A stretch of 64,000 nt of DNA from Thermoplasmatota archaeon. Lineage in GTDB: Archaea > Thermoplasmatota > E2 > DHVEG-1. The stretch covers positions 3,473 to 67,472 of the forward strand of contig JAUWBM010000001.1 in NCBI GenBank assembly GCA_030601705.1. The letters run 5' to 3'. Below the pieces are notes generated by a model. That model saw nothing but the letters and a program-made list of their open reading frames with translations. It made no database searches and had not been told where the DNA came from. The translations under genes were made by a program, and so were the position numbers. Within the stretch, counting starts at the first letter, position 1. Every line of letters begins with the position of its first letter. Positions 7,822 through 48,679 of the stretch are shown here, in pieces.

Positions 7822-7858
7822 CCATACCCCTTTTAGTGCGGAATAATAGCAAGGGTTA

Positions 7859-19967: not shown

Positions 19968-20353
19968 AAGGAAGAATGATATCCCCTGGAAAGATCGAGA
20001 GCGTAGCTATTGTTTCAGAGGAACCTATTGGTTTCTATGGAGGGATAGATATAAAAACTGGTACCGTTATCGAAAAAGATCATCCACTAGAAGGGAGGTC
20101 GGTGAAGGATAAGATACTTGTTTTTCCATGCGGTAAGGGTTCGACAGTTGGATCCTATGTTATCTATGGACTAAAGAAAAATGGGGTAGCACCAAGTGGT
20201 ATTATCAACAAAGAGACAGAAACAATAGTAGCGACAGGTGTAATATTAGCAGGTATTCCATGTGTTGACCAAATAGAGATAGAAAAAATAAAAGATGGAG
20301 ACACTGTTTTATTAGATGCTGATAATGGGATAGTAACAATACAAAAAAAATAA
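19964..20353 (+). CDS. aconitase X swivel-domain subunit (DUF126; phosphomevalonate dehydratase small subunit candidate)
   Basis: ~129 aa; GKGSTVGSYVIYGLKKNGVAPSGII motif; start overlaps the stop of the large subunit. Confidence 0.8.
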   Translation: MKGRMISPGKIESVAIVSEEPIGFYGGIDIKTGTVIEKDHPLEGRSVKDKILVFPCGKGSTVGSYVIYGLKKNGVAPSGIINKETETIVATGVILAGIPCVDQIEIEKIKDGDTVLLDADNGIVTIQKK

Positions 20354-23757: not shown

Positions 23758-25245
23758 ATGAGGGTAAAGAACGCTGCGGGTAGGACGATTGAGACTGCTA
23801 TTGGTGATAAAACGCTGAAGCCTTTTGCAGGAGCAAAAAAATACAGTTGGTGTTCAAAGGTTACAAGTTTGACTGACGCATTGAAAAAATGCGGCCTGAA
23901 GAACGGAAATACACTTTCTTTTCATCATCAACTTCGCAATGGTGACAATGTAATCAATATGACGCTTGCTGCAGCACGTGATCTCGATGTTAAAAATATT
24001 AGAATGGCACAGACTGCAATATTTAACGTTCATGAACCTGTTATAGACTTTATTAAAGAGGGTGTTGTAAATAGAATAGAGGGAAGTATTAATGGTGTTG
24101 TCGGAGATTTTGTTTCTAAGCATCCTCTCCCATATCCCGTTGTGTTGCGTTCTCATGGCGGGCGTTGGGCTGCTGTTAAAACAGATGAATTACATGTTGA
24201 TATTGCTGTTATAGCTGCTTCTGCCGCCGATGTGCGTGGGAATTGTACGGGAATTATTGGTGAGAGTGCGTTTGGCCCCATATCTTATTCTGAAATTGAT
24301 GCAATGTGTGCTGATCATGTGATCGTGGTGACTGACAATGTTGTTGATTACCCCTGTAAATTTCAAGAGATTCAGGAGAGATATGTTGATTATGTAGCAG
24401 AGGTAGATCGCATAGGCGATCCCAAAAATATTATGTCGGGTACAACAAAGATAACAGAAGATCCTATGAAACTGCAGATCGCTCGTGATTGTGTTGAATT
24501 GATGGATGCTGTGGGGATTATTAAAGAGGGCATGATTTTTCAGTCGGGTGCGGGTGGAATATCTCTTGCTGCAATGAAATATTTAGATGATAGACTTGAA
24601 GAAAAAGATATAGTTGCAGCTACTGCAACTGGTGGTCTTACAAAGTTAATATGTGATATTTATAAGGCAGGTCGTGTTAAAAATATCTATTATTCCCAAG
24701 TTTTTGATGAGTATTCTGTAAAGTTTATCCAAGAAGATCTTGGACTGCCAGCTGATATTGGTCATTACGCTGATCCAACCTCCAAGGGCCGTACTATTGA
24801 TGGCCTTGATACAGTTGTTCTTGGTGCAACAGAGGTCGATACAAATTTCAATGTTAATGTTAACACACATAGTGATGGTCGACTTTTACATGGTATAGGA
24901 GGTCATCAGGATACATCTGCTGGTTCATCCTTATGTATTATTTCTTGTCCTGTTTTTAGAAAAGCTAACCCGATTGTTAGAGAGAAGGTTACAACAATTA
25001 CAACCCCTGGAGATGTTGTAGACGCCATTGTAACTAATGAAGGGACAGCAATAAATCCCCAGCGGAAAGACATCATTGAAAAGGTAGAGGGGAAAATAAA
25101 CCTCGTTCCAATAGAAGAGCTAAAGAATATGGCATATGATGCAACAGGTGGACCAGAAGAGTTGGACCTTGGCGAAGAAATCGTAGGCATGACGAAATGG
25201 ATGGATGGAACCGTGTTAGATATTATAAAACGGGTTAAAGAGTGA
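23758..25245 (+). CDS. citF: citrate lyase alpha-subunit homolog (citrate CoA-transferase, CitF family)
   Basis: Near-collinear match to CitF: LSFHHQLRNGDNVINM, VVLRSHGGRWAAV, VDIAVIAAS..D..GN, LDTVVLGATEVDTNFNVNVNTHSDGRLLHGIGGHQDT, TTITTPGDVVDAIVTNEGTAINPQR. Confidence 0.85.
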   Translation: MRVKNAAGRTIETAIGDKTLKPFAGAKKYSWCSKVTSLTDALKKCGLKNGNTLSFHHQLRNGDNVINMTLAAARDLDVKNIRMAQTAIFNVHEPVIDFIKEGVVNRIEGSINGVVGDFVSKHPLPYPVVLRSHGGRWAAVKTDELHVDIAVIAASAADVRGNCTGIIGESAFGPISYSEIDAMCADHVIVVTDNVVDYPCKFQEIQERYVDYVAEVDRIGDPKNIMSGTTKITEDPMKLQIARDCVELMDAVGIIKEGMIFQSGAGGISLAAMKYLDDRLEEKDIVAATATGGLTKLICDIYKAGRVKNIYYSQVFDEYSVKFIQEDLGLPADIGHYADPTSKGRTIDGLDTVVLGATEVDTNFNVNVNTHSDGRLLHGIGGHQDTSAGSSLCIISCPVFRKANPIVREKVTTITTPGDVVDAIVTNEGTAINPQRKDIIEKVEGKINLVPIEELKNMAYDATGGPEELDLGEEIVGMTKWMDGTVLDIIKRVKE

Positions 25246-25251
25246 TATAAA

Positions 25252-26022
25252 ATGAGATGGAACACCAAAATCACAAAGGTTGAGCCGAATCATTTGGTAA
25301 CACGTGGTTATAGACAAGAAGATTTGATAGGGAATATACCGTATTCTCACGTTGTATACCTGCTTTTGAAAGGCGATCTGCCATCAAAAGAACATGGAAA
25401 GATGATTGATGCCATTCTTACTGCCTGTATCGATCATGGGGTAACACCTCCTTCATCAATTGCATCTAGAACTGTAGCATCTGGTGGAGTACCCCTTCCA
25501 ACTGCTGTTGCAGCCGGAATTCTATCTATTGGAGATGCTCATGGTGGGGCAATAGAAAAAGGTGCAAAATTCCTGCAAAATGGCATTTTACGTATGAAAG
25601 AAGAGGGTAAAACAGTAGAAGAAATAGCAGAGATTCTTGTTAATGAGCATAAGGAACAACATAAACGGATATCGGGGTTCGGCCACAGGGTTCATACTTC
25701 AGATCCCAGAACAAAAAGACTTTTTGTACTTGCCGAAGAATTAAAAATTGCTGGAAATCATATGGCTCTTTCAAATGCAGTTGAATTAGAACTTGAAAAA
25801 ACATATGGAAGAAAGCTGCCAATAAATGTAGATGGCGCAATAGCAGCAATTATTTCAGATATGGATTTTGACTGGAGACTTGGAAAAGCATTCTTTTTGT
25901 TAGGTAGAGTTGCAGGATTAACTGCGCATGTTTATGAAGAACAAACTCAGGAAAAACCCATGAGAAAAATGTTTTCAATAGAATGTGACTACAACGGTCC
26001 AAAAGAAAGAGATCTCCCCTAA
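25252..26022 (+). CDS. short citrate-synthase-family protein (citryl-CoA lyase-like, CCL)
   Basis: ~256 aa; VVYLLLKGDLP, DAHGGAIE, GFGHRVHTSDPR and C-terminal R..G..AH..EE correspond to citrate-synthase catalytic motifs without the large N-terminal domain. Confidence 0.75.
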   Translation: MRWNTKITKVEPNHLVTRGYRQEDLIGNIPYSHVVYLLLKGDLPSKEHGKMIDAILTACIDHGVTPPSSIASRTVASGGVPLPTAVAAGILSIGDAHGGAIEKGAKFLQNGILRMKEEGKTVEEIAEILVNEHKEQHKRISGFGHRVHTSDPRTKRLFVLAEELKIAGNHMALSNAVELELEKTYGRKLPINVDGAIAAIISDMDFDWRLGKAFFLLGRVAGLTAHVYEEQTQEKPMRKMFSIECDYNGPKERDLP

Positions 26023-26080: not shown

Positions 26081-27400
26081 ATGAAAATTTTGCTGGTATT
26101 TCCTAGGATTGAACACGGTGCATTAACCTGTAAAGATAAAGGGTCATGGAGTTCCATACTCTTTGGCTATCCAATTATAACACTCCCGCATCTTGCAGCA
26201 ATAACCCCGAGTAACCATATTGTCAAAATAGTCAACGAGAATTATGACACCATTGATTTTGATGAAGATGTTGACTTGGTAGGAATAACCTGTTATACTA
26301 TGACAGCGCCACGTGCGTATGAAATTGCAGATGAGTTTAGAGAACAAGGGAAAACGGTTGTATTAGGTGGATATCACCCAACAGCAATGCCAGAGGAAGC
26401 AAAACAACATGCAGATAGCATTGTAATGGGCATGGCAGAAGCGAATTGGCCAAAGACAATTAATGATTTTGAAAATGGAAAATTAAAACCCATATATGAA
26501 AGGGATCATGATTTTGATATATCTAAAGTCCCTCCGTTGAGAAGGGATCTTATTAGACATAACCCGTTCATAGGCGCAATTCAAACAACAAGAGGATGTT
26601 CTAATCGTTGTGAATTTTGTGCAATTAGCAGCTTCTGTGGAAATATGGTAAAACAAAGACCCGTCAAAGATGTTGTCGAAGAAATTAAAAATATGCCTAA
26701 TAATTTGTTTATATTTCATGATCCGCATCTCACCTTACATCGAAAATATGCAATGGAGCTCTTTAAAGAGATGATACGGCAAAAAATTCATAAGGGATGG
26801 GTAGCAAATGGAACGGCAAATATTCTTGGTAAAGCTGAAGAGAAATTTTTAGATCTAGCTCAAAAAGCTGGATGTGTCGAATGGTTCGTAGGTTTTGAAT
26901 CAGTTAATCAGGAGACATTAAATAATATCAATAAAAAACACAACAAAGTAGAAGATTTTAAAAAAATGATAAAAAGAGTCCATGATCATGGAATGACCAT
27001 CCAGGGAGGTATAATCTTTGGGTTTGACGAGGATACACCCAATATTTTTGACACAACACTTGAGACAATTAATGACTGGGATTTAGACGTGCTTGAGGTA
27101 AATATTCTTACTCCTTATCCGGGTACACCATTATTTGAAAGGTTAGACAGAGAGGGAAGGATACTTACAAGGGACTGGAGTAGATATAATCAAGTTGATG
27201 TTGTCTTTAAACCTAATAATATGACCGGAAAAGAATTATATGAGGGTGCAAGAAGAGTAGCTAAAGAATTTTATTCACCCCATAACATAGTAAAAAAATT
27301 AACACAGATTATTATGACAACTAAAAGATTCTCAGGCATCATTCCGTCTGCAACAAGTTTTGCCTTCCGACGTTATTATAAAAGGGATTTTAATTTCTGA
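26081..27400 (+). CDS. B12-binding-domain radical SAM enzyme
   Basis: N-terminal cobalamin-binding-like Rossmann (VDLVGITCYTMTAPRAYEIADEFREQGKTVVLGGYH) followed by the CSNRCEFC radical-SAM cluster motif. Confidence 0.8.
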   Translation: MKILLVFPRIEHGALTCKDKGSWSSILFGYPIITLPHLAAITPSNHIVKIVNENYDTIDFDEDVDLVGITCYTMTAPRAYEIADEFREQGKTVVLGGYHPTAMPEEAKQHADSIVMGMAEANWPKTINDFENGKLKPIYERDHDFDISKVPPLRRDLIRHNPFIGAIQTTRGCSNRCEFCAISSFCGNMVKQRPVKDVVEEIKNMPNNLFIFHDPHLTLHRKYAMELFKEMIRQKIHKGWVANGTANILGKAEEKFLDLAQKAGCVEWFVGFESVNQETLNNINKKHNKVEDFKKMIKRVHDHGMTIQGGIIFGFDEDTPNIFDTTLETINDWDLDVLEVNILTPYPGTPLFERLDREGRILTRDWSRYNQVDVVFKPNNMTGKELYEGARRVAKEFYSPHNIVKKLTQIIMTTKRFSGIIPSATSFAFRRYYKRDFNF

Positions 27401-31099: not shown

Positions 31100-32467
31100 T
31101 TAGTCATAAAGATTCCTGTTATCAATTAATCTTTTAGCCTTTATTGAATTTCTGTCAAAAGTATTTGGTTCAACAAGTTTTATCTGGGGTTTTGCAATGG
31201 TTTTTGAGTGTGTTATGCCATCTTTAATCTCTGGCATTTTCATTATAGCATCCGCTATTTTTTCTCGTATGGATTCGTTTATCACTTGGCTTTCAGCAAT
31301 TACGGTAATAAAGTCCTTTCCATTTTTTTTATCAAATACTACCTGATATTCAATGATTTCAGGAATATTGAAAATTGCCTCATCAAACATGTTTGTAAAA
31401 AGATTGTCACCTGCTCCAATTGGAATAAGATCATCTGATCTTCCCTTAATTTCAATTCTTTTTAGAGGAAGGCCACAATCACATATACTCGGAATTATCC
31501 TTCCAAGATCATGCGAATTATATCGAATCAAAGGCATCCCCTCTCTATCATAGGTTGTAAAAAGTAATTCTCCAATCTCTCCATCCTCCAATTGTTCACC
31601 AGTTTCAGGATCAACCACTTCAGTAAGAAAATTAGTTTCGCTAAGATGCATGCCATGTTTCTTTTCACATTCACCTGCCATCAGTAATCCAATTTCAGTG
31701 GTGCCATATCCTATAAAAACATCGGCATCCCATTCTTTTTCAATGAATTTTCTCATTGAATTAGGCGTTGGCTCAGCCCCAATAAGAAACTTTTCAATTC
31801 CGAGCCCTTTCAAATCACAGAGTTTTTCCATTTCTTTTGTAAGATAATTGACACGTGAAGAAACATCTGAGAAAATATTTGGTTTATATTCATTTAGAAT
31901 CTCTAATTCTTCCTCAACTAATAATCTCCCTGTAGCAAGTGTTAAACATCCGATAATCTCATATGCTTTATCTAGACAATATCTATTTCCCCATATCTCT
32001 GTACCATATCCCACTTCAAAGGTAAGGCGGACAATGTCTTTGTGTGTAATTCCGTACATGAGTTGCAAACCTGTTGCAGTAGAGACTGCTATCCTTTTAA
32101 TGTCATTTTTCGTAAAGTATGCTTTTTTTGGTTTACCTGTTGTACCGGCCGTCGTAAAAACCTTAATGAACCTATCCTCAGGAACTGAGAAAAAAGATCT
32201 TGGGTCATTTTGTAAGTCTATAGTATCTGTATACGGAATCTTTGTCATATCTTTAATAGATTTTATATCGCTTGGTTTAAGACCATATTTTTTAAAAAGT
32301 CTATGATAGAAAGGAGAAGTATTATATGCATACCTTAAAGATTTTTTAAGTTTTGAAAAATTATATCTATCCAAAGTTATTCTAGTCAATTTACCAAAAT
32401 ACGATTTTTTTGCAGGCTCCTGGCCATTTGATTTTTCTCTCAATCTTGACTTAACAAATGGTGCCAA
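31100..32467 (-). CDS. phenylacetate-CoA ligase / coenzyme F390 synthetase-family adenylate-forming enzyme
   Basis: PaaK-like N-terminus (SPFYHRLFKKYGLKPSDIKSIKDMTKIPYTDTIDLQ...FTTAGTTGKPK) and ANL fold length. Confidence 0.75.
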   Translation of the reverse strand: MAPFVKSRLREKSNGQEPAKKSYFGKLTRITLDRYNFSKLKKSLRYAYNTSPFYHRLFKKYGLKPSDIKSIKDMTKIPYTDTIDLQNDPRSFFSVPEDRFIKVFTTAGTTGKPKKAYFTKNDIKRIAVSTATGLQLMYGITHKDIVRLTFEVGYGTEIWGNRYCLDKAYEIIGCLTLATGRLLVEEELEILNEYKPNIFSDVSSRVNYLTKEMEKLCDLKGLGIEKFLIGAEPTPNSMRKFIEKEWDADVFIGYGTTEIGLLMAGECEKKHGMHLSETNFLTEVVDPETGEQLEDGEIGELLFTTYDREGMPLIRYNSHDLGRIIPSICDCGLPLKRIEIKGRSDDLIPIGAGDNLFTNMFDEAIFNIPEIIEYQVVFDKKNGKDFITVIAESQVINESIREKIADAIMKMPEIKDGITHSKTIAKPQIKLVEPNTFDRNSIKAKRLIDNRNLYD

Positions 32468-32944: not shown

Positions 32945-33940
32945 TTGAAGGCAAATTCAAATTCAAAATATACCATTAGAGACAAACTTTTTGCTCATTT
33001 AGAAACATGGAGACTTTATACTGTAATATGGTGTGGATTAGTTAGTTTAGCTGGATCATGCATTGCTTTTGGAGATTTTCCACCATTAAAAATTGCGTTT
33101 CTAGCTTTTTTTATACCAATGATGGGTTGGACGGCAGGATTATATTTAGCAGATTTTTTAGATAGAAAATTAGATGCTATACAAAAACCTCACAGACCCA
33201 TTCCCTCGGGTAGAATTAAACCATATGAAGCAATTGCAATAGGAGCAATATTTGCATTAACTGGTTTTATACTATCTACCCTATTAAGTCCAAATAATAT
33301 TTTACTTGTTTTTGTAGTAGCTCTATTGGTACTAGGATATGCAAAATTTTCTAAATCTCGCGGTATAGTGGGCAATTTAAATAGAGGATTTGTTACAGTT
33401 GCTACATATTTTTTTGGTGTTTTTTCTATAGGTCAATCTATTCAGGAAATACCAATATACATTTGGTTGCTTTCATTTGTATTTTTAATTCATGATACGA
33501 ACAGTAATTTAGTTGGAGCAATAAGAGATATGGAGGGAGATAAAAAAGGTGGATATATAACAATACCTGTAAAATATGGACTTAAAAAATCAATATTTAT
33601 TTCATTAATTCTAACTTTTACTTGGCTTTCCCTTGTTCTTTATCTACCGTATTATTTCAAATTTTTAAAGATTGAATTCTATCTACTAATGATAATCGAT
33701 GTTTTAATTCTATTCTCCCTTTATGTTTATTTATTCATGACAGTAAAAAATTATTCTAGAGAAAAGGCACTAAAATTCCATGAATTTTTCGTAATAGAGC
33801 GAGTAACTTTAGCATCTGCCTTAATTTTTGGAATTGCAAGTATAAACAAAGCAGGAATTATTTTTGTTATTGCACTTTTAGTTACATATCTCTCTCAATA
33901 TTTACTAAGAAAAAGATATGAGTTTAAGGAGAAAAAATGA
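32945..33940 (+). CDS. UbiA-family prenyltransferase (integral membrane)
   Basis: Multi-TM protein; Asp-rich motifs YLADFLDRKLD and NLVGAIRDMEGD; TTG start per the track. Confidence 0.8.
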   Translation: MKANSNSKYTIRDKLFAHLETWRLYTVIWCGLVSLAGSCIAFGDFPPLKIAFLAFFIPMMGWTAGLYLADFLDRKLDAIQKPHRPIPSGRIKPYEAIAIGAIFALTGFILSTLLSPNNILLVFVVALLVLGYAKFSKSRGIVGNLNRGFVTVATYFFGVFSIGQSIQEIPIYIWLLSFVFLIHDTNSNLVGAIRDMEGDKKGGYITIPVKYGLKKSIFISLILTFTWLSLVLYLPYYFKFLKIEFYLLMIIDVLILFSLYVYLFMTVKNYSREKALKFHEFFVIERVTLASALIFGIASINKAGIIFVIALLVTYLSQYLLRKRYEFKEKK

Positions 33941-34941
33941 AATATGCAGTTATTGGTCTTGGAGCTGTTGGAAGTATTGTTGGCGGTCTTCTTGCTAAAT
34001 CTGGTGAAAATGTAGTTTTAATCGGTAAAAAAAACCAGGTAGAGATAATAAAACAAAAAGGGATAAAGATAGATGGGATTGCTGGTTCGATACATGTAAA
34101 AAATGTTTCTGCATCTATTGATCTTTCATTACTTGAGGATGCGGATGTTATCCTTATATGCATAAAATCTCAAGATACAAAAAATCTTGCTTATGATTTA
34201 AAGAAACATATTAAGAAATCTGCATTAATTATTTCGTTTCAAAACGGTGTGAAAAACCAAAAGAGTTTAGAAGATATAACGGGAAATAAAGTTATTTCAA
34301 GCATCATTCTTTTCAATGCGTTATATTCAAAACCAGGTGAAGTTACCCTTGCAATTAAAGGCAAAATGTTAGTAGAAGCTGATAATTCATGTTGGGATAT
34401 CGAAAAAACTCTATTTAATTCACTTAGAAAAGAAGGATTAGATTCTGAAATTGTAGATGATATAGAAGGTTATCTTTGGAGTAAATTAATTGTCAATCTG
34501 CAAATTGCAGTGACAGCATTAACTGGTCAAACAATAAAAGAATCAACTGTTGATAAGGATTGCAGGGCAATATTAGTTGCAACAATGAAGGAAGGAATAG
34601 ATATTGTTGAACAATCAGGGATTACTCTAAAAACTTTACCAAGTATTGATCCTAGAAGTCTTATAAGAAGGATGAGTTTATTTAATTCTACTTTGCTAAA
34701 AATTGGTAGTAGACTAATGAAAATAAAAGAAAATGCTATAAACTCCATGTGGCAGAGTTTATCAAGAGGTAAACCAACTGAAATTGATTATATAAATGGA
34801 GAAATTGTAGATTTGGCTAAAAAAAATAAATTACAAGCACCAATAAACACAAAACTTGTAGAGCTGATAAAGGATGCAGAAAGAAAACACGCGACAAAAA
34901 GCTTTGAATCTTATGAACTAAAGGAACTCTTGGGAATTTAA
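33937..34941 (+). CDS. 2-dehydropantoate 2-reductase (ApbA/PanE family; 6PGD-like C-terminal domain)
   Basis: MKYAVIGLGAVGSIVGGLLAKSG Rossmann start and GKPTEIDYINGEIV C-terminal motif; start overlaps the UbiA stop. Confidence 0.8.
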   Translation: MKYAVIGLGAVGSIVGGLLAKSGENVVLIGKKNQVEIIKQKGIKIDGIAGSIHVKNVSASIDLSLLEDADVILICIKSQDTKNLAYDLKKHIKKSALIISFQNGVKNQKSLEDITGNKVISSIILFNALYSKPGEVTLAIKGKMLVEADNSCWDIEKTLFNSLRKEGLDSEIVDDIEGYLWSKLIVNLQIAVTALTGQTIKESTVDKDCRAILVATMKEGIDIVEQSGITLKTLPSIDPRSLIRRMSLFNSTLLKIGSRLMKIKENAINSMWQSLSRGKPTEIDYINGEIVDLAKKNKLQAPINTKLVELIKDAERKHATKSFESYELKELLGI

Positions 34942-34985
34942 CTCTGATACTTAATTAAAATTTGAAAAGGAGGATACCTAAAAGG

Positions 34986-35609
34986 ATGGTGAAATTTATT
35001 GGATTTTTATTGAATAAAATAGGTGTAAAATTTAATGCTCATAAATTAAAAATATTTATTGATAAAGGTTTCATTATAATTGAAAAAATTATTACCAAAC
35101 TTATCAAGTTAATTCCTTTTTATCTTGATTTTTACGAGGAAATACTTGAAAAAGAAATAATATTAGCAGATATTTCAAAAAATGATAAAATTGTTCATAT
35201 TGGATGTGGGTCCATTCCTGCTACATGCATCCTTATTACAAAAAAAACAAATGCAAGTATTATTGGAATTGAGAAAAATGAACATTCCGTAAAACACGCA
35301 AAACAATGTGTTTCTCAATTAAATCTTTCAGATAAAATTGAGATTAAACTTTCTGATGCTAGTGATTTTTCAATTAAAAATTTCGATCTCATTATTATAG
35401 CACAAGGCATAACTCCCTATAGAGAAATTTTAGAGAAAATCTCCAAGGACATTAAAAAAGATGCTCGTGTGGTTTTTAGAACAAGTTCGAAAATAAGTGG
35501 GGAGCTTTCCGAAAATGATTTGTTTTTAAAAGATATATTTAAAATAGATAAGATGGTGTATCATAAACAAAATAGTTTGTTAATTTCAATTTTGCTTCAA
35601 AAAAAATAA
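34986..35609 (+). CDS. nicotianamine-synthase-like (NAS/CntL-like) protein, short form
   Basis: DKIVHIGCGSIPATCILI resembles the NAS GSGPLPLT motif; FDLIIIAQ and DARVVFRTS resemble the NAS C-terminal block. ATG at 34986 follows a GGAGG-like motif. Confidence 0.5.
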   Translation: MVKFIGFLLNKIGVKFNAHKLKIFIDKGFIIIEKIITKLIKLIPFYLDFYEEILEKEIILADISKNDKIVHIGCGSIPATCILITKKTNASIIGIEKNEHSVKHAKQCVSQLNLSDKIEIKLSDASDFSIKNFDLIIIAQGITPYREILEKISKDIKKDARVVFRTSSKISGELSENDLFLKDIFKIDKMVYHKQNSLLISILLQKK

Positions 35610-36427: not shown

Positions 36428-36922
36428 CGCTTGAATGCTTACCGTAATTTCATCAAGACTGTCTCTTTATCATCTTTTATAATTGTGTCTTTTCTTCATA
36501 TTGTAGAGAAATACCAAGATTTGTATTAACGTGCTCATCACATCACTATCTATAGGATCAACAAATGTTGTGTCTATATATAGACAGACATATTCCCTTT
36601 CTCAGTTGTCTGTTAAGAGTGGTCGCCAATATTATAGTACCGACGACTGGTCAATGGCTTTTAGAGATTGGTCAAGATGTGCTGAAGGTTCCAAACATTA
36701 TAAAAAGAAGTTTTACCAACACCAACTATAACCCCTACAGAATTTTTGTCAAATTTATATGAAACACCGCAGCCAGGAAATTCTATCTGACTGAAAAATT
36801 AACTATTTGGTAAATCTTTGCTAGTTGGTCATTGATCGATATTAGAATTGAAAAAACAGCTTAGGTACTAGATATACTGATGGCAAAGATTTTAATAGGA
36901 TATTTCCATATTTTTGCCGACT

Positions 36923-37843
36923 ATGAAAAAAAATGTACTCTCGATACTGGGCATCAAAGATGAAATAGAAGAAATCATTGATTTCGGCTTTCAGTTAAAA
37001 AATGATGTGAAAAACGGAAAGAAACTGGATTATCTCCAGGGTAAAACACTGGCGTTGATATTTGAACGGGCATCTACACGAACCAGAGCTTCTTTTGAAG
37101 TAGGTATGACCCTATTAGGTGGCCATGCAGTATTTCTAAATAAAGACGACATCAAAATAGGTGAGAGAGAATCCGCTGAAGACATTGCTTTGGTTTTATC
37201 GAGATACGTAGATATCATAATGTATAGAGCGTTAAAAAAAGAAGATTTACATGAACTTGCAAAACATGCTACTGTACCTGTAATAAATGGGCTGGATATG
37301 GATGAGCATCCCTGCCAGATACTAGCTGATCTAATGACTATTAAAGAGCACAAAGGAAGATTACATGGGCTGAATTTTGTTTTCATTGGAGATGGAGATG
37401 ACAATCTAACCCATTCCTACCTTCTAGGATGTACACTTGTCGGAATGAATATTACAGTTATCTCCCATAAAAAACACTGGCCATCGGAATACTTCGTTGA
37501 CCAGGCAAATATGATTGCTGAAAAGAAAAACCTACGAGTAACTATAACAGATGATATTGATGCAATAAAAGATGCTGACATAATAACTACGGATACATGG
37601 GTATCACTCTGGTATGAAAAAGAAAGACAACAAATAATGGCTGATTTAAAAGATTATACAATAACGCAAGATATTATGAATAAAGCTAAGAAAGATGCTA
37701 TTTTCATGCATTGTATGCCCATTTATTATGGAGAAGAAGTAGTAAAAGAAGTTGCCCATGGAAAACAATCTGCGATTATCGGTGAGGCTGAAAATCGTAT
37801 GTGGGTACAAATGGCATTAATGGTTAAATTATTGAGCCAATAA
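36923..37843 (+). CDS. ornithine-carbamoyltransferase-family transcarbamylase with non-canonical second-substrate motifs
   Basis: STRTRASFE carbamoyl-phosphate motif and HPCQILADLMTI are conserved, but DTWVSLW replaces the OTC DxxxSMG and HCMP replaces HCLP. Confidence 0.8.
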   Translation: MKKNVLSILGIKDEIEEIIDFGFQLKNDVKNGKKLDYLQGKTLALIFERASTRTRASFEVGMTLLGGHAVFLNKDDIKIGERESAEDIALVLSRYVDIIMYRALKKEDLHELAKHATVPVINGLDMDEHPCQILADLMTIKEHKGRLHGLNFVFIGDGDDNLTHSYLLGCTLVGMNITVISHKKHWPSEYFVDQANMIAEKKNLRVTITDDIDAIKDADIITTDTWVSLWYEKERQQIMADLKDYTITQDIMNKAKKDAIFMHCMPIYYGEEVVKEVAHGKQSAIIGEAENRMWVQMALMVKLLSQ

Positions 37844-38004: not shown

Positions 38005-39027
38005 TCATACTATGTTAAAATGATAGTTAATGATCTGTAATAATACGTCTAGGAATACTAAAGTATATACCATAAGAAGATAGTTGTAGCCTTTTCTCCC
38101 AACAATTTTTCCCAACTCTCCCATGCCTTCTTTCTTTAATTTTAAGAGTTTACAATACCAAGACAGTGAGTATATCCACACTATTAGAAATAGTACCAAG
38201 AATATGGGAGAAAGCAGTGTTCTCATGTAAAGTAATACACCCAATATACCTGAAAGTACAAACATGAAGAAAGAGATTTTTGCTGCAGTTTTTTCTCCAA
38301 AAGATGTTGCATATGTTTTTACTCCCAGTTTACGATCTCCTTCTATATCGTGTATTCCTTCGGGTAAATCATGGGCATTATCTGCAAAGTATGTAAAAAG
38401 AACGAGAAGGACCATCATTTGAAAATCATAAGTATTAAATGAAATTTTATCTCCAAATATCGGAAATGTTAATGATATATTGCCAGTTTGTCCCATAGTC
38501 CAAATTGCAAAGAATCCAAAGATTGCTACTACAACCCATTGTATAGGAGTAAAAATTTCAGAGTATGCAGGTATCTTTATAATTTTTTTCAAGTATTTAT
38601 TATGAAACGCCACAAATAAGGCTACTGCTTCAACTAATATAAGACACCATATGCTAACGAGAAACGCAAATATAAACGTCATAGCCGAGAATATCAGTGC
38701 TATCACAAAGAATTTTTTTGAACTTATTCTGCCTTTAGGTAGCGGCCGATCTGGGTGAACAACAGCGTCGATATCAATATCTGTTATATCATTCCATATA
38801 AGTGCTGCAAAAAAACCTGAGTAGAGAGTTAATATCGTTAAAATAATTGTTTTTATAATCTCCCAGTCATACGCCTGTAATCCATATGCCAACATTGGTA
38901 CACTAGCAAACATGAGTACATGGCTTATCAATTCATAAATCGGAAAAGGACGCCAAGAAAAAAGGAAACTAAATGGTCCTTTGGGAGAGTTAGCTTTCAT
39001 CTTTCCCTCTAAGTGATTCTTCTTCAT
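38005..39027 (-). CDS. UbiA-family prenyltransferase (second copy; start uncertain, possibly an internal Met)
   Basis: ALIWNDITDIDIDAVVHPDRPLPKGRIS (UbiA motif I) plus a second Asp-rich motif; ~8 TM segments. Confidence 0.8.
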   Translation of the reverse strand: MKKNHLEGKMKANSPKGPFSFLFSWRPFPIYELISHVLMFASVPMLAYGLQAYDWEIIKTIILTILTLYSGFFAALIWNDITDIDIDAVVHPDRPLPKGRISSKKFFVIALIFSAMTFIFAFLVSIWCLILVEAVALFVAFHNKYLKKIIKIPAYSEIFTPIQWVVVAIFGFFAIWTMGQTGNISLTFPIFGDKISFNTYDFQMMVLLVLFTYFADNAHDLPEGIHDIEGDRKLGVKTYATSFGEKTAAKISFFMFVLSGILGVLLYMRTLLSPIFLVLFLIVWIYSLSWYCKLLKLKKEGMGELGKIVGRKGYNYLLMVYTLVFLDVLLQIINYHFNIV

Positions 39028-39307
39028 GTGTATTTGGTTCCATAGAAACTGGAAGAGAATATATCCTTTTCATAATCACAAGGATGAAACAGCAACAAAT
39101 TCCAAAACCATTTGCAACAATTATGGGGAACTTTTCTACAACAATGCCGTAGAGTAACCACAACATCATACCAACTACCAATGTCAACGGCATATAATAC
39201 GATACGTCATCAAGTTTCTTGGTTCTATAACCTCGGATCAATTGAGGTATAAAACCTAAAGAGGTTATGGCCCCTGCCATCAAACCTAACAGATCGATCG
39301 CATCCAT
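38990..39307 (-). CDS. SemiSWEET/PQ-loop family small membrane transporter
   Basis: LMAGAITSLGFIPQLIRGYRTKKLDDVS...WLLYGIVVEKFPIIVANGFG closely follows the bacterial SemiSWEET pattern (PQ motif, 3 TM). Confidence 0.65.
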   Translation of the reverse strand: MDAIDLLGLMAGAITSLGFIPQLIRGYRTKKLDDVSYYMPLTLVVGMMLWLLYGIVVEKFPIIVANGFGICCCFILVIMKRIYSLPVSMEPNTHEEESLRGKDES

Positions 39308-39369
39308 GAATGAAAACTCATCCAAAATACAATATTAAATCTTTCTGATTTCTACAAATAAGTTTTTCA

Positions 39370-41099: not shown

Positions 41100-41136
41100 C
41101 GCTAGGTATGTTATATAGTTATAGGTGTGTAATAAT

Positions 41137-44100
41137 ATGAAAGAATTTGTTGACGCTTTTTATAGAGATAGAAGTATAGTAAATCACCAGCTTGCATCAT
41201 ATGATGATTTTTTAAATCAAAGATTGCAAAGAATTGTTGACAATACTGTAATTGGCCAAGAAGAAGAGGGGACGGAAAAAGGTTGCATATATCCAGAAAT
41301 AGAAGGATACAGGATAAAATTTGGCAAAATAAAAATAGGATCTCCCGAAGTGAAGGAAGCCGATGGAACCGAAAGACGTTTATCACCTATGGAGGCTAGA
41401 TTGAGAGATCTTACCTATGAAGCAAATGTTGAATTAGAATTCATACCTGTTAAAGATGAAGTTGAATATGAACCTGAAACAGTGAGAATTGGCGAACTCC
41501 CCATAATGATCAAATCAAAGAAATGTAACATATCTAAAGAAGTATTAGAAGAAGAAGCGGAACACAGTTTTTCAGATGAAGAGTATAAAGAGAAACTGCA
41601 GGAGAAACAGGAGGATCCTTTAGACCCCGGCGGATACTTTATTAGCAATGGTACAGAAAGAGTGCTTATTACTGTCGAAGATCTTGCACCCAATCGGGTC
41701 CTAGTAGAAAAGGCTAGCAGATATGGTACTGATGTAGAAGTTGCCAAAGTGTTTTCTCAGAGAGAAGGATACCGTGCTTTGACGGTAGTTGAGAAAAAAA
41801 AGGACGGCATGCTCATGGTATCTCTGCCAACGACATATGGCCAGATACCTCTCATTATATTGTTGAGATCATTGGGAATGGAGAACGATGAGGAAATCGT
41901 CGATGTAATATGTGTAGATCCTAAAATGAAACCTTATGTTTTAGCAAATATTGAGGAATGTGCCAGAGAGTACAGTATAACAACAAAAGAGGAAGCTGTT
42001 GCTTATTTAGGTAAAAAATTCGCGGGCGGGCAAGCTAAAGAATATCGTATTAAACGAGTAGAAACCATAATGGACAGACATCTTCTTGCACATCTTGGAA
42101 ATTCTCCAGAAGATCGTCTGACAAAGGCTATTTTCATGGCACGTATGGGTATGGCCGTTTTAGAATTAGCATTAGGCAAGAGAGAACCTGACGATAAAGA
42201 TCACTATGCAAACAAACGGTTGAAGCTAGCTGGAGATTTAATGGAAGATCTATTTAGGGTTGCATTCACAGCTCTTTGTAAAGACTTAAAATATCAGATT
42301 GAAAGGGTTCATGCAAAAGGTAAGGAAATAAAGATTAGCTCGTCTCTACGTGCAGATGTTTTAAGTCAAAGGATCCATCACGCCCTTGCGACAGGTAATT
42401 GGGTTGGGGGTAGGGCAGGGATATCCCAACTGTTAGATAGAACAAGTAATTTAGCTGTACTAAGTCATTTAAGAAGAGTGACCTCACCTCTAACAAGATC
42501 TCAACCGCACTTTGAAGCCAGAGATTTACATTCCACTCAATGGGGCAGATTATGTCCAAATGAAACGCCTGAAGGACCCAACTGTGGTCTTGTGAAAAAC
42601 CTTGCACTTACCGTTGAAATATCTGAAGGATTTTCTGAAAAAGAGTTAGAAACTGTTCTGAGAGATTTAGGCATCAAAGAAATTACTAAAAATATGACTG
42701 GGTCCAGAGTTTATCTAAACGGTGACCTTATTGGTATGCACTCCAACGGAGAAGAATTAGTACAAAAGTTAAGGCAGAGAAGGCGAAAAGGTTTACTTAA
42801 CAACGAAATCAATGTATGTTATGATGTAGAAGCAAATGATGTTATTGTAAACTGTGACTGTGGCAGATTAAGAAGACCCCTTCTTGTTGTTGAAAACGGC
42901 AAACTTTTGTTAGATGATAAGTATTTAAGTGAACTCAGGGAAGAGAAGAAAAAATGGATAGACATTATAAACGAAGGCTTGGTAGAATATATGGACGCTG
43001 AAGAAGAGGAAAATACACTTATAGCGTTAACAGAAAGAGATATCACACCTGATCATACCCACATGGAGTTAGATCCCATGTGTATATTAGGCATCGGTTC
43101 TTCTTTGGTTCCATATCCTGAACACAACTCTTCTCCGAGAATAACCATGGGCGCAGGTATGGGTAAGCAATCCCTTGGTTTTGGAGCGGCAAACTACAGA
43201 ATACGTCCTGATACCAGAGGTCATCTGATGCATTATCCTCAAAAACCCTTAGTTCAAACTCACCCCATTAAATATATCAGGTTTAGAGAGAGACCCGCTG
43301 GACAAAACTTCATCGTAGCAGTAGCATCATTCCAAGGTTATAATATGGAAGATGCACTTGTAGTGAGCAAATCGGCTATTGAAAGAGGACTTGGTAGAAG
43401 TTCATTTATTAGGACCTATCGCAGTGAGGAAAAAAGATATCCTGGTGGCCAAGAGGATCATTTTGAAATTCCAAATCCAGATTGTAGAGGTGTAAGAAGT
43501 GAAGATGCATACAATAATCTGGGTGAAGATGGACTTATTTCTCCAGAGTGTAATGTTGATGCAGGAAATGTACTGATAGGAAAAACCTCGCCGCCTAGAT
43601 TTCTTGAAGAACCAACGGATTTTTTAACACCTCAAAAAAGAAGAGAAACATCTGTTACAGTTCAGCATGGCGAAGTGGGCGTTGTTGATAAAGTTATGCT
43701 TTCTGAATCAGTAAATGGTTCAAGAATGGTTAAAATTAAGGTACGAGAACAGCGCATTCCTGAATATGGAGATAAGTTTGCATCAAAGCATGGTCAGAAG
43801 GGAGTCATCGGATACATTGTACCACAAGAGAATATGCCATTTACAGAAGATGGTATGTCTCCTGATTTGATAATTAACCCACATGCTATACCATCTAGAA
43901 TGACAATAGCCCACGTACTTGAGATGATAGGTGGCAAGGTAGGATCTCTTGAGGGAAGAGTAGTGAATGGAACTGCATTTAGCGGAGAATCCGAAGAAGA
44001 ACTTAGAGGTGCGCTGATTAAAAATGGATTTAAAGACAATGGTAAAGAAATTTTCTATGATGGAATGACAGGAGAGCCATTAGAAGGTGACGTGTTCATG

Positions 44101-44502
44101 GGATGTATTTATTATCAAAAGCTACATCACATGGTAGCAGGTAAAATACATGCACGATCAAGAGGACCTGTACAAATATTAACAAGACAGCCTACCGAAG
44201 GTAGAGCTAGAGAAGGCGGTTTACGATTTGGAGAGATGGAAAGAGACTGTCTAATTGCTCATGGAGTTTCAATGGTTATAAAAGATAGATTACTTGATGA
44301 ATCAGATATTACAATGAAGTATGTATGTAATAATTGTGGTCACATAGCAATGATTGACAGACATGGAAGATTGCATTGTCCTGTATGTGGTGATAAGGCG
44401 GATATACATCCTGTTGAAATGAGTTACGCGTTTAAGTTGTTAATTGATGAATTAAAATCATTGGTTGTTGTGCCCAGAATTAAATTAGAATCGCTAGTAT
44501 AG
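41137..44502 (+). CDS. rpoB: DNA-directed RNA polymerase subunit B (unsplit Rpo2)
   Basis: Full-length collinear RpoB ([27 protein letters not shown]-terminal Zn ribbon CxxC...CxxC) in a single ORF. Confidence 0.95.
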
Positions 44503-44513
44503 GAGGTTTAGGT

Positions 44514-47177
44514 ATGGCAAGATCAAGAAGTATCACTAAAAAAATAGGGAAATTGGAGTTCGCTGTGCTTTCACCAAATGAAATCAGAAAGATGAGTGCT
44601 ACAAAAGTAATTACTGCTGATACCTATGATGATGATGGTTTTCCCATTACAATGGGTCTTATGGATCAAAAATTAAGCGTCATTGAGCCGGGATTAAGGT
44701 GTAAAACCTGTGGGTTGAAAGTAGGAAAAGACAAATGTCCTGGACACTTCGGCCATATTGACCTTGCGATGCCTGTTGTCCATGTGGGATTTGTTAAAAC
44801 CATAAGAAATAGTTTACGGGCAACATGCAGAAAATGTGGAAGGATACTGCTAACCGATCAACGATTGGATGGGTATAAAAAGGCAATCGAAAAAAATAAG
44901 TTAGAAGGGAGAGACAATTCCTTCATTTTTAAGACCATCATATCGGAATGCGTTAAAGGAGATGTATGCCCTAGATGTGACAATGAAACAGGTAAGATAG
45001 ATCTTGATAAACCTACATCTTTTAGAGAAAATGGCAAAAAATTAACTCCTACTGAAATAAGAGATTGGCTGGAAAAAATTCCCGATGAGGATCTCCTGTT
45101 ATTGGATATTAATAAGAAATCAGCAAGACCTGAATGGATGATTTTAACAGTTTTACCTGTACCTCCAGTTACTGTTAGACCTTCTGTAACACTAGAATCT
45201 GGTGAGCGTTCTGAAGACGATCTTACACATAAGCTAGTAGATGTTATCAGAATAAATCAGAGACTCCAAGAAAACAGAGACGCCGGCGCCCCACAGCTTA
45301 TAGTAGAGGATTTATGGGAACTGCTTCAGTATCATGTTACCACATACTTGGACAATCAAACCTCTGGGATACCACCAGCAAGACATCGTTCTGGAAGACC
45401 TCTTAAAACTTTGGCACAGAGACTTAAAGGAAAGGAAGGGAGATTTAGAAGTAACTTATCTGGTAAGAGGGTTAATTTTTCTGCAAGAACTGTGATCTCT
45501 CCAGATCCTAATCTAAGCATTAACGAGATTGGTGTTCCTATAGAGATAGCTAGAGAGTTGACCGTCCCTGTGAGAGTCACTACGCACAATCTTGAATGGT
45601 GTAAAAAAATAATCGAACTAAGTGCTGAATCGGATACAGCGGAATATGTACCGCATGTAAATTACGTGAAAAGATACAGAAGCGGCATAGAACAGAGAAT
45701 CAAAGTAGCGGAAAAAAATGCAAAAGATGTTGCTGAAAAATTAGAAGTTGGTTATATAATAGAGAGACAGTTGATGGATGGAGATATTACATTATTTAAT
45801 CGTCAACCCTCTCTTCACCGTATGTCTATGATGGCACATCGCGTTAAGGTAGTTCCTTATAGATCATTTCGGTTTAACCTCTCTGTATGCCCTCCATATA
45901 ATGCAGATTTTGATGGAGATGAAATGAATCTTCATCTCATACAAGGAGTTGAGGCAAAAGCTGAGGCTGAAATTCTCATGAAAGTACAAGAAAATATTCT
46001 CTCACCTAGATTTGGCGGCGTAATAATAGGTGGACTACATGATCATATATCAGGATGTTTTTTACTTACATATAGAGACAGAAAATTCTTAAAGGAGGAT
46101 GCAGCACGATTTCTAGGTGCATTCAACTATAAAGGAAAATTCCCCAAAACTCATGTTGAGAAAGAAACACACTTTGTTTACGGGAGAGACATATTTAGTG
46201 TTTTGTTACCCCGCGATTTGAATATGGAATATAAAGCTAAATCGTGCTTTAACTGTGAAGTATGCAAGGCTCCAGATTGTCCACATACTGCATATGTCAT
46301 CATAAAAAATGGCGTTCTAAAACAAGGAGTGGTTGACGAAAACAGTATTGGTTCATTTAAAGGAAAAATAGTAGAAAGGATAATTAGAGATCACGGCACA
46401 GATGCTGGCAGGGAATTTATTGATGATGTTACTCGTTTAGGGATAGCTACGATAACTAAATTTGGTTTTACAACAAGTATAGATGATGAAGACATACCAA
46501 AGGAAGCAAAAAGACAAATAAAAGAAGGTTTAGATAGAGCACAGAGCAAGATTAAGAATCTTGTTGCAGCATATGGAAATAATGAACTGGAACCTCTTCC
46601 AGGTAGAAGTTTAGAAGAAACTTTAGAAATGGAAATAATGAGAGTTACTGGAAGGGCAAGAGATATGGCTGGTGAAATAGCCAGCAGATATCTTGGAATG
46701 GATAATAGTGCAGTCATAATGGCAAAATCTGGTGCTAGGGGCTCGATGCTGAACCTATCCCAGATGTCTGGTTGCGTAGGACAGCAGGCGGTTCGAGGTG
46801 AAAGAATATCGAGGGGTTATAAACATAGAACATTACCGCATTTCAAAAAGGGAGATTTAGGATCAAGTGCAAAAGGTTTTGTTGCCAGCTGTTACAAAAG
46901 TGGGCTTAATCCAACTGAATATTTCTTCCATTCAATGGGAGGTAGAGAAGGTCTCGTAGACACTGCAGTACGCACATCTCGATCAGGATATATGCAAAGA
47001 CGTTTAGTAAATGCGTTAGAGGATCTTAAGGTAGAAAATGACGGTACTGTGAGACATACTGGGGGAGATATAATACAATTTATTTATGGCGAAGACGGAG
47101 TAGACCCATCAAGAAGTATAAATGGAAAAGCAGTGGATGTTGATAGAATCATTTACGAAATAAAAGAGGAGGCATAG
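44514..47177 (+). CDS. rpoA1: DNA-directed RNA polymerase subunit A' (Rpo1N)
   Basis: Zn-binding N-terminus and the [10 protein letters not shown] catalytic motif. Confidence 0.95.
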
Positions 47178-47179
47178 TT

Positions 47180-48679
47180 ATGGCTACCTCTGCAACTAAA
47201 AATAAAAAACAAAAAAACATAAAAAAACCTGTTAAGCCTAAAAAAGGTATTTCTATCAAAAATCAAAAGAAAAAAGAAATGTTAAAATCTACGGTGGATA
47301 AAACTGTCAAAGCAAAGAAGCTGAAAGAAAAAATGGTTCCTCCGCCACCTAAAAAACAGAAGAAGAAGGAAAAGCCTGCAAAGATTAAAAAAACAAATGA
47401 TATCCGCACCAAAAAGAAGAAAGAAACCTTGAAATCTACTAAGGGTAAAGCTGAGAAGTTAGAATTAAAAATGGTTCCTCCGCCACCTAAAGAAGAAGAT
47501 GAGCCAAAAGAATGCAAAAAGATAAGATCAGAGATAAACGAAATTTTGAAAGATAGATTTCTTCCTAGACACGTAGTTGATAATATTGTAGAATGGGTTG
47601 CTAGGGATAAAAAACTTGAATCAAAATTGAAAATTATAATTGATCGAGTATTGGCTGATTATAGTAAAAATCTAATTGATCCAACTGAAGCATGTGGCAT
47701 GGTAGGTGCACAAAGTATTGGAGAGCCTGGAACGCAAATGACGATGAGAACTTTCCACTACGCAGGTGTAGCAGAAATTAACGTTACTTTGGGCTTACCA
47801 AGGCTCATAGAAATTGTTGATGCAAGATCTATACCGTCAACTCCGATGATGAATATCTATCTCAGAGATGAATATAAGGTAAATCCTGATCTAGCAAAAG
47901 AAATTGCAAATAAAATTGAAATTACAACACTTACAGACGTAGCAGATATTGAAATGGATTTAATTAGTTTAATTACCCATATTAAACCAAACAAAAAAAC
48001 AATGAATAAAAAGGGATTAACATTAGAGGAAATATTGGGGAGATTAAAAACAGTCAGGAAGACAGATGCCCACATAGAAAAAAACGCCATTAAAATAACA
48101 TTAGATGACCCGGGTTATAAAAATCTTCAGAGTGTTAACGAAACGCTTAAAAAATTAAAAATTAAAGGTATCGACGGGATAAAACGTGTTATCATAAGAA
48201 AGGAACCTGATGAAGGATATGTAATATACAGTGAAGGGAGTAATCTCAAAGAGGTTTTAGAAATCGAGGGTGTTGATCCATATAAGACATCAACAAATGA
48301 CATTCATGCTGTCGCTAGAGAACTCGGAATAGAGGCTGCAAGGAACATGATAATTCAGGAGGCACACAATACTCTATCAGAACAAGGTTTGAATGTAGAT
48401 TTAAGACACATTATGATTGTAGCAGATGTTATGACTGCAGATGGCACTGTGAAAGCTATAGGAAGGCATGGTGTAAGCGGTGAAAAGAGCTCTGTATTAT
48501 CCAGAGCTGCATTTGAAATAACAGTGAATCATTTACTATTAGCTAGCCAGAGAGGCGAATCTGATAAACTCAATGGTGTGGCAGAAAACATCATTGTTGG
48601 GCAGCCTGTTAACTTAGGTACGGGCGCTGTTGAGCTTGCTATGGGCCATAGTAAAAGTAAAAAGAAGAAGGGAAAGTAA
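47180..48679 (+). CDS. rpoA2: DNA-directed RNA polymerase subunit A'' (Rpo1C) with a ~120-aa Lys/Pro-rich N-terminal extension containing an internal 46-aa repeat
   Basis: Conserved A'' core from ~aa 125 ([29 protein letters not shown]). The N-terminus carries KKKEMLKST...KMVPPPPKK and KKKETLKST...KMVPPPPKE. Confidence 0.9.
47263..47500. repeat. two ~138-bp direct repeat units encoding the Lys-rich / MVPPPPK motif in the rpoA'' 5' region
   Basis: Identical 21-mer atggttcctccgccacctaaa at 47333 and 47471. Confidence 0.6.

Follow-up and report, generated by a model that had tools for sequence, protein, structure and literature searches.

The ornithine-binding residues of ornithine transcarbamylases (OTCs) have been listed in a review of the family as K53, N167 and D231, S235 and M236 of the DxxxSMG motif, and this motif is also used to separate OTCs from other family members (PMC4581275). 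K53 pairs with the alpha-carboxylate of ornithine (PMC4581275, PMC3282769), and its position is occupied by E, K, N, D, A or Q in the known families of the review, in which R is not listed (PMC4581275). In the Arabidopsis OTC, a sharp turn occurs at the SMG glycine as the loop closes over ornithine (PMC10765591). The putrescine transcarbamylase (PTC) of E. faecalis (4A8H/4A8P) is an offshoot of the OTCs with a rewritten SMG loop, DVWYGLY, in which Y233, at the position of the SMG glycine, lies where the ornithine alpha-carboxylate would be and excludes it; the exchange of YGLY for VSMG lowered the efficiency with putrescine from 577 to 0.03 U/mg/mM and raised that with ornithine from 0.67 to 2.6 U/mg/mM, i.e., the preference was switched (PMC3282769). 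Here we describe an OTC-like gene at positions 36923 to 37843 of a 64,000-nucleotide stretch of a Thermoplasmatota archaeon (assembly GCA_030601705.1, contig JAUWBM010000001.1, positions 3,473 to 67,472 of the forward strand; hereafter the window), which encodes an OTC-family protein with an intact carbamoyl-phosphate site and altered ornithine-recognition motifs. The reading that we favour, with confidence and doubt in about equal measure, is an active carbamoyltransferase whose substrate would have changed to an ornithine-like but bulkier or more hydrophobic molecule, because the catalytic site is intact, the pocket is rebuilt and fixed, the branch is accelerated, two defining features of OTCs are lacking and PTC provides a precedent. 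The label "ornithine carbamoyltransferase" may thus be wrong for this gene.

Carbamoyl-phosphate site and ornithine-recognition motifs

The open reading frame in the program-made list of the window spans 36914-37843 (+). The ATG at 36923 is the likely start codon because more than 100 homologues, 305-306 aa in length, begin with MKKN(I/V)LSIL, which agrees with the start given by the first-pass annotation. The product matched the Pfam domains OTCace_N (1.8e-46) and OTCace (3.2e-48). An AlphaFold2 model, made from 40 sequences of the clade formed by this protein and its close relatives, had a mean pLDDT of 94.5 and a pTM of 0.93, and it matched the solved OTCs of M. tuberculosis, P. furiosus, B. 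anthracis, human and Arabidopsis with TM values of 0.92-0.95. The C-terminus corresponds to the C-terminal helix of OTCs (model helix 285-304).

The motif positions were verified by translation of their coordinates (Table 1). The first-pass annotation had described an intact carbamoyl-phosphate site next to a DxxxSMG loop changed to DTWVSLW and an HCLP motif changed to HCMP, and this description was borne out. STRTR and HPCQ were confirmed in the translation and are invariant or nearly so in the clade. In the phmmer alignment with the Pyrococcus furiosus OTC (1A1S), TDTWVSLWYE stood over TDVWASMGQE and FMHCMPIYYGEEV over FMHCLPAHRGEEV, ungapped, and no SMG was found elsewhere in the 306 aa, so that the objection of an offset alignment or a hidden SMG does not apply. 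Changes that the annotation had not mentioned were K53 to R, N166 to D, A276 to I and R to Y after HCxP. The numbers are those of E. coli ArgI; they agree with K53, N167, D231, S235 and M236 of the review.

Residues were counted in 118 full-length clade members (68-97% identity) aligned with two comparison sets unfiltered for SMG, namely the 118 nearest canonical Thermoplasmatota OTCs (Aciduliprofundum, Methanomassiliicoccales and others) and 113 proteins from across all of life, each the representative of a 50%-identity cluster. Seven changed positions lie in or next to the ornithine-recognition motifs FxKxSxRT, DxxxSMG and HCLP. They read K, N, M, G, L, A and R in the canonical Thermoplasmatota OTCs, each in 118 of 118, and R (118), D (114), L/F/Y/I (118), W (118), M (118), I (117) and Y (118) in the clade. 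Of the 113 members of the diverse set, 107 have K, 99 have N, 105 have M, 106 have G, 103 have L, 102 have A and 89 have R at these positions, and W never occurs at the glycine position. The best 120 database homologues (68-97% identity) all carried TDTW[VI]S[LFYI]W and HCMP. Among the features of OTCs, SxRTR, HPxQ, HxLP (as HCMP), R106 (R102 here) and R319 (R292 here) are present and invariant or nearly so, whereas Lys at the third position of FxKxSxRT is absent (R in 118/118), as is DxxxSMG, of which D and S are kept and G is W in 118/118.

S51, R53, T54, R55, R102, H129, Q132 and C264 are invariant in the 118 clade members, R292 is found in 112 of them, and the equivalents of the ornithine-contacting residues N167, D231, S235 and C273 are invariant or nearly so. 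The clade-wide invariance of the carbamoyl-phosphate and catalytic residues indicates that the protein is under selection as an enzyme. The fixed Trp at the position of the SMG glycine is a credible specificity switch because of the precedent of Y233 and the YGLY-to-VSMG exchange in PTC.

Several other differences were considered as specificity markers and set aside. HCMP was downgraded because its M also occurs in 6 of the 113 diverse proteins, which are otherwise canonical and have SMG; H, C and P of this motif are kept in the clade. H321W, K324M and T129D are common to the closest canonical OTCs or to all Thermoplasmatota OTCs and mark descent. The MW..M pattern of ENRMWVQM is likewise best taken as a marker of descent and not of specificity, because the closest canonical OTCs have MW..M too. 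One divergent clade member (L025, 9883-10800) has SVRTH for STRTR and a loop of TDTWVSMWY, in which Met is kept and Gly is replaced by Trp; thus the change of G to W is possible without that of M to L, F or Y.

Distribution, descent and rate of change

When one genome per GTDB species was scanned, the gene was found at 63-87% identity in about 20 Thermoplasmatota metagenome-assembled genomes (MAGs). An orthologue of 86% identity is present on the closed chromosome CP070724.1, and another carrier is 'Thermoplasmatales archaeon SM1-50', a genome that is included in the genome paper on the Thermoprofundales (MBG-D). More than 552 loci with a relative of the gene were found in JGI metagenomes. The Thermoprofundales are described as uncultured and among the most widespread sediment archaea.

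Close orthology to a characterised OTC, which would have spoken against a new specificity, was not found. The highest identity to any SMG-bearing OTC was about 50%, and among the representatives of the 50%-identity clusters the sole match above 50% was one fragment of 225 aa (66%), followed by a protein of 48% with a canonical SMG. Identity to the P. furiosus OTC was about 40% over the Foldseek alignments and about 44% in the MAFFT alignment; the clade as such had 44%, as compared to 58.6% for the canonical Thermoplasmatota OTCs. A neighbour-joining tree was computed for 30 members of the clade together with 40 canonical Thermoplasmatota OTCs and 51 other sequences. In this tree the clade was monophyletic in 50 of 50 bootstraps and nested among the Thermoplasmatota OTCs, with a stem of 0.29 substitutions per site. 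A three-point estimate gave a branch length of 0.57 for the clade vs 0.31 for the canonical Thermoplasmatota OTCs, i.e., about 1.9 times longer, and the mean identity inside the clade was 72%. A long stem together with 72% internal identity is what a functional shift with a later return of constraint is expected to leave.

The closest canonical proteins (P0372, P0384 and P0394, about 50% identity) have ENRMWAQM like the clade and keep K53, SMG and HCLPAHR; they could represent either the sister-group orthologue or an ancestral paralogue. The contigs of the P0384 group have 55% GC vs 36-47%, and they held no marker in common with the MBG-D sequence compared. The gene order at four loci of these closest canonical OTCs (L133, 10001-10939; L134; L135; L136) is conserved and consists of alanyl-tRNA synthetase (AlaRS), AsnC, a class-I aminoacyl-tRNA synthetase, an unknown 663-aa protein, the OTC and an ABC transporter.

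The most divergent clade member with a different context (L024, 767-3555; 65% identity) is on contig JBDRGF010000024.1, which is labelled Pseudomonadota and is probably mis-binned. It has ALRTR for STRTR and a loop of TDTWVTIWY, lies 24 bp downstream of an Amidohydro_3 gene and has no UbiA, NAS-like or AttH-like neighbours. The amidohydrolase as partner gene might be a clue to a substrate of the ureido or amide type.

Gene neighbourhood

In the window, UbiA1, a PanE-family reductase, two NAS/CntL-like genes (NAS, nicotianamine synthase) and the OTC-like gene follow one another on the same strand, and an AttH/CrtC-like gene, a PaaK-like ligase and a B12 radical-SAM gene are located a few kb upstream of the OTC-like gene (Table 1). 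Neighbours were surveyed in 51 metagenome loci of at least 6 kb, and a separate non-redundant count covered 67 loci with enough flank; loci L001-L005 were annotated with Pfam, and the genes of about 70 further loci were identified only by BLAST against the window proteins, with spot checks. UbiA2 was present in 49 of the 51 loci. It was the convergent downstream neighbour in 60 of the 67 non-redundant loci, and in 47 of these 60 the 3' ends of the two genes overlapped, a neutral explanation for which the adjacency was cut from strong to moderate weight as evidence for coupling. The UbiA2 family is lineage-restricted, with 666 matches of which the best 120 were all at least 60% identical.

Table 1. 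Coordinates of the OTC-like gene, its motifs and its neighbours in the window
Feature	Position	Strand	Basis
OTC-family carbamoyltransferase coding sequence, 306 aa + stop	36923..37843	+	Pfam, NCBIfam, phmmer, AlphaFold2 model
R49, OTC K53 position (third of FxKxSxRT; FERASTRTR)	37067..37069	+	Clade counts
STRTR, binds phosphate of carbamoyl phosphate	37073..37087	+	S, R, T, R invariant in clade
HPCQ, HPxQ carbamoyl-phosphate motif	37307..37318	+	Translated coordinates, clade conservation
GDGDDNLTHS; N161 (OTC N167, binds ornithine carboxylate) kept, preceding Asn (N166) to Asp	37388..37417	+	Alignment
DTWVSLWY, DxxxSMG loop; D224 and S228 kept, M to L, G to W, next residue Y	37592..37615	+	Alignment
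HCMPIYY, HCLPAHR equivalent; C264 kept, L to M, A to I, R to Y	37709..37729	+	Alignment
ENRMWVQM; R292 (R319) kept	37790..37813	+	Translated coordinates, alignment
Putative promoter-proximal stretch, TATA-like TTTTAATAGG	36882..36915	+	blastn of intergenic gap against related loci
UbiA2, UbiA-family membrane prenyltransferase, convergent with OTC-like gene	38005..39027	-	Pfam UbiA 5e-29; NDxxDxxxD in translation
SemiSWEET / PQ-loop transporter, in 23/51 loci	38990..39325	-	NCBIfam SemiSWEET_2 81.5 bits vs 80
Pseudogene remnant of second B12 radical-SAM paralogue, last 52 codons with internal stop	36652..36807	+	tblastn
NAS2, NAS/CntL-like SAM-binding protein, 188 aa	35861..36427	+	Pfam PCMT and NAS (21.6 bits, below cut-off)
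NAS1, NAS/CntL-like SAM-binding protein, 215 aa	34962..35609	+	Pfam NAS 31.5 bits (cut-off 27.1)
PanE/ApbA-family reductase	33937..34941	+	Pfam, NCBIfam
UbiA1, second UbiA-family prenyltransferase, DGGGP synthase-like	32945..33940	+	Pfam, NCBIfam
Adenylate-forming ligase, PaaK / DVU_1553 family-like, in a subset of loci	31100..32467	-	Pfam, NCBIfam
AttH/CrtC-like protein, 434 aa	29791..31095	+	Weak precomputed Pfam AttH match on orthologues
B12-binding radical-SAM protein	26081..27400	+	In 37/51 loci

The upstream neighbour was the AttH-like gene on the same strand in 27 loci, a divergent NAS2 in 21 and UbiA1 in 10, and in 7 loci this place was taken by the second radical-SAM paralogue with a 306-aa methyltransferase after it. 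UbiA2 and the AttH-like gene have exchanged sides in three loci, where all four genes are nevertheless together, and the OTC-like gene keeps the company of the UbiA2, NAS-like and AttH-like genes through at least five gene orders. Other recurrent neighbours were an SDR-type reductase (29 loci), a SPASM radical-SAM protein, methyltransferases and response regulators. For the AttH/CrtC-like protein, the window copy gave no match in Pfam and none in the sequence search of the PDB. In the window, the OTC-like gene has about 500 bp of upstream sequence to itself. The last 34 nt of this sequence have 85-96% nucleotide identity in related loci (blastn) and are the putative promoter. The pseudogene remnant was detected by tblastn against the 0.7-kb region (61.5% identity over 52 aa, E 2e-19), and in the closest relatives (L054, L055, L059 and L063) the OTC-like gene is directly preceded, on its own strand, by the intact paralogue and the 306-aa methyltransferase. 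Both genes have been lost by deletion in the window lineage, in which NAS2 has also been inverted.

UbiA1, the reductase and NAS1 form a tightly packed unit (window 32945-35609 (+); L005 7066-9730 (-)). The reductase in the middle is of the PanE type in the window and in L006 and of the SDR/3-beta-HSD type in 29 other loci, as if one gene of an operon that is conserved in its other parts had been exchanged for a non-homologous one. NAS1 scored 50 bits with the NCBIfam model of CntL (cut-off 350), and its best PDB matches were CntL (1e-8) and thermonicotianamine synthase (4e-6); the best PDB match of NAS2 was also CntL (7e-6), with an NCBIfam CntL score far below cut-off. Their motifs, GCGSIPAT in NAS1 and GCGAIPYT in NAS2, resemble GxGPLPLT of NAS and CntL. 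Both proteins are without the N-terminal domain of the NAS/CntL enzymes, and they possibly carry out aminocarboxypropyl or methyl transfer, two activities that are not separable by sequence. We found no literature that links nicotianamine synthase, archaea and UbiA.

Genes of the arginine pathway and for carbamate kinase were not recognised within 8-10 kb, nor was agmatine deiminase in the surveyed loci, of which L001-L005 were annotated with Pfam and the others covered by BLAST against the window proteins and a few spot checks. A second OTC-like gene was not seen in any of the loci surveyed, with one per locus. The absence of arginine neighbours is uninformative because the closest canonical OTCs are also away from arginine genes. 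Taken together, the neighbours suggest that the transcarbamylase gene is part of a cluster that is specific to the lineage and related to isoprenoids. Weak likeness to uncharacterised NCBIfam families, i.e., the DVU_1553 ligase, the DVU_1556 methyltransferase and a lipid-biosynthesis B12 radical SAM, was seen in the window at 31100-32467 (-) and 26081-27400 (+) and in L055 at 6991-7911, and these likenesses suggest a lipid-modification cluster.

Further genes of the window were also noted. A run at 16231-20353 (+), about 17 kb upstream of the UbiA genes, consists of a GHMP kinase, a UbiD-family decarboxylase, an Aconitase-X large subunit and a small adjacent open reading frame, and resembles the archaeal mevalonate route. 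At 23758-26022 (+), and also in L012 and L014-L018, a CitF-like gene is followed by a short gene for the C-terminal domain of citrate synthase alone; L001 has at this position ATP-grasp / CoA-ligase / citrate-synthase fusion genes that are ATP-citrate lyase-like. In many genomes this block and the OTC-like region are syntenic. The archaeal RNA polymerase operon at 41125-48679 (+), with an unsplit B of 1125 aa, A' of 887 aa and A'' of 499 aa, confirms an archaeal host. The GC content of the window is 28-41%.

Candidate substrates and the weighing of alternatives

The OTC-like protein shares with the OTCs (ArgF/ArgI/ArcB; P. furiosus 1A1S, M. tuberculosis 7NNV, human 1OTH) the two-domain unknotted fold, the length and the carbamoyl-phosphate site (SxRTR, R106, HPxQ, HCxP, ENR), with the equivalents of N167, D231, S235 and C273 kept, and it differs from them by K53 to R, N166 to D, SMG to S(L/F/Y/I)W and HCLPAHR to HCMPIYY. 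The knotted transcarbamylases AOTC, SOTC and YgeW have an extended 120s loop as well as a proline-rich loop, and DxxxSMG is absent from them (PMC4581275). The OTC-like protein is unknotted, its best structural matches are the unknotted OTCs over full-length alignments, and its scores with the knotted NCBIfam models were below cut-off (AOTC 156 vs 288; YgeW 35 vs 453), which rules out an identity with these enzymes. As precedents, AOTC, SOTC and YgeW are transcarbamylases that act on ornithine with a substituted alpha-amino group, and a substrate of this kind is what we deem most likely here. The unknotted DBTC and DPTC belong to the OTC branch, have changed motifs in the 240s loop and are encoded inside biosynthetic gene clusters (PMC4581275); their motifs are (T/S)RWQ(T/S)(T/M)G and HDLP, whereas the OTC-like protein keeps the Asp of DxxW and the Cys of HCxP, and DTWVSLW together with HCMP rules them out. 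ATC was rejected by its NCBIfam score (TIGR00670 144.7 vs 236.95) and by the lack of RxQxER in the 240s loop.

We propose that the gene would encode a soluble OTC-fold carbamoyltransferase, presumably trimeric and descended from a Thermoplasmatota OTC, which would bind carbamoyl phosphate in the standard way and pass the carbamoyl group to a primary amine. Its second-substrate pocket is rebuilt and fixed across a whole archaeal lineage that includes the Thermoprofundales/MBG-D. The residues for the alpha-amino-acid head group are kept or conservatively replaced (N161 for N167, D224 for D231, S228 for S235, C264 for C273 and R49 for K53), while the hinge glycine of SMG has given way to the invariant Trp and five neighbouring positions have changed too (L/F/Y229, Y231, M265, I267 and Y269). 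Free L-ornithine would no longer be preferred; instead, the substrate may be an ornithine-like amine with a carboxylate, on which the enzyme would act by carbamoylation or, in reverse, by phosphorolysis of the ureido form. This amine would be bulkier or more hydrophobic, e.g., substituted on or near the alpha end, and might come from the adjacent lineage-specific UbiA, NAS-like, reductase or methyltransferase genes. The first-pass annotation had argued that loops altered in this manner define transcarbamylases with other substrates. This is reasonable, with PTC Y233 at the same position as the Trp, but AOTC, SOTC and YgeW are knotted and the PTC signature failed. It had also named the product of the NAS-like enzymes as a possible substrate, and here a NAS/CntL-like gene is indeed close in most related loci, but the region is broadly syntenic and UbiA2 is the tightest neighbour. 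A link to the NAS-like neighbours is plausible as a hypothesis.

Several facts weigh against a changed substrate. Four ornithine-touching residues are unchanged and K to R is conservative. Both NCBIfam models of OTC scored above cut-off (TIGR00658, an equivalog model, 338 vs 280.85; NF001986 356 vs 306), although these scores measure overall similarity and not specificity, and it is owing to TIGR00658 that sources label the protein ornithine carbamoyltransferase. As to the neighbourhood, the closest canonical OTCs are likewise away from arginine genes, synteny extends in many loci to upstream genes that are unrelated (citrate-lyase-like, HD), and with the 3' overlap the adjacency to UbiA2 could persist without a common function. 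Should arginine-prototrophic genomes have no OTC homologue other than this protein, citrulline must still be its product. The Thermoprofundales genome papers, a stable-isotope study and the supplements contain nothing on OTC, argG/argH, carbamate kinase or agmatine, with the sole exception of a LysJ/ArgD entry for MAG SG8-52-4.

The main alternative is that the gene is an ordinary OTC of the lineage (ArgF, anabolic or catabolic), inherited vertically, in which the loop has drifted or co-adapted, e.g., R49 with W230, and the substrate is unchanged. We take it as a serious possibility, although on balance we doubt it. The nesting among the Thermoplasmatota OTCs, the ENRMWAQM-type motif of the closest canonical group, the passing of both the equivalog and the subfamily cut-offs, the invariant equivalents of N167, D231, S235 and C273 and the presence of one gene per locus are all in its favour, and the neighbourhood is explicable by descent and the UbiA2 overlap, canonical relatives being likewise unclustered with arg genes. 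But it needs seven residues that are invariant in 118 of 118 related OTCs to have changed and then been fixed with function unaltered, and the Met and Gly of SMG are kept in 105 and 106, respectively, of the 113 members of the unfiltered diverse set. It also leaves a branch about 1.9 times that of the canonical relatives, and an aromatic residue at the glycine position disfavours ornithine in PTC (PMC3282769).

A narrower form of the changed-substrate reading is a new specificity class in which the enzyme would carbamoylate an ornithine-like head group that is alkylated, acylated or tethered to an isoprenoid moiety, to give a hitherto undescribed ureido-bearing isoprenoid lipid or metabolite, in archaea that rank with the most abundant of marine sediments. 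The isoprenoid moiety is proposed to be provided by the adjacent UbiA, NAS-like (possibly aminocarboxypropyl-transferring), reductase and methyltransferase genes. In this precise form we consider it unlikely.

Less probable still is a convergent PTC-type enzyme, or another transcarbamylase of decarboxylated polyamines, that would work catabolically with carbamate kinase and yield ATP from agmatine or a similar compound in these peptide-fermenting archaea. Both proteins have an aromatic residue at the SMG-glycine position, W230 here and Y233 in PTC, and both keep HCxP and the D of DxxW; the residue at the PTC L232 position is branched or aromatic, the model fits PTC (TM about 0.94) about as well as it fits OTC, and MBG-D archaea are described as protein degraders. 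The PTC signature is nevertheless lacking: R stands where PTC has Gln for K53, VSLW fits the (Y/W)(G/W)(V/L/I)X that replaces XSMG in PTC at the third position only, with V-S for (Y/W)(G/W), the C-terminal extension of about 20 residues (helix 13, LxxFL; chains of 339-355 aa) is absent in the 306-aa protein, and TIGR04384 gave 273.7 bits vs a cut-off of 500. The retention of N167 and of a positive charge at position 53 speaks for a substrate that still bears a carboxylate, and agmatine deiminase and carbamate kinase genes were not recognised in the surveyed loci, most of which were identified by BLAST only. Finally, a catalytically dead or regulatory OTC-fold protein, e.g., a partner of the adjacent membrane prenyltransferase, is very improbable, since the altered carbamoyl-phosphate motifs that would suggest it are found in a few divergent members (ALRTR in L024, SVRTH in L025) and the catalytic and carbamoyl-phosphate residues of the main clade are invariant or nearly so, which is unexpected for a pseudoenzyme.

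Annotation pipelines give this gene the OTC label, and metabolic reconstructions would thereby count it towards arginine synthesis or the arginine deiminase pathway; if the substrate has changed, they would be wrong for a whole order. In that case the family would gain a specificity class with the signature FxRxSxRT, DxWxS(L/F/Y)W and HCMPIYY, and the gene would provide a detailed example of a rewritten SMG loop. If the protein is still an OTC, the supposedly universal SMG glycine and K53 would be dispensable, which matters to enzymologists and to the interpretation of human OTC variants. If the enzyme works with the neighbouring prenyltransferase and NAS-like genes, the product to be expected would be an unknown isoprenoid that carries a carbamoyl group.

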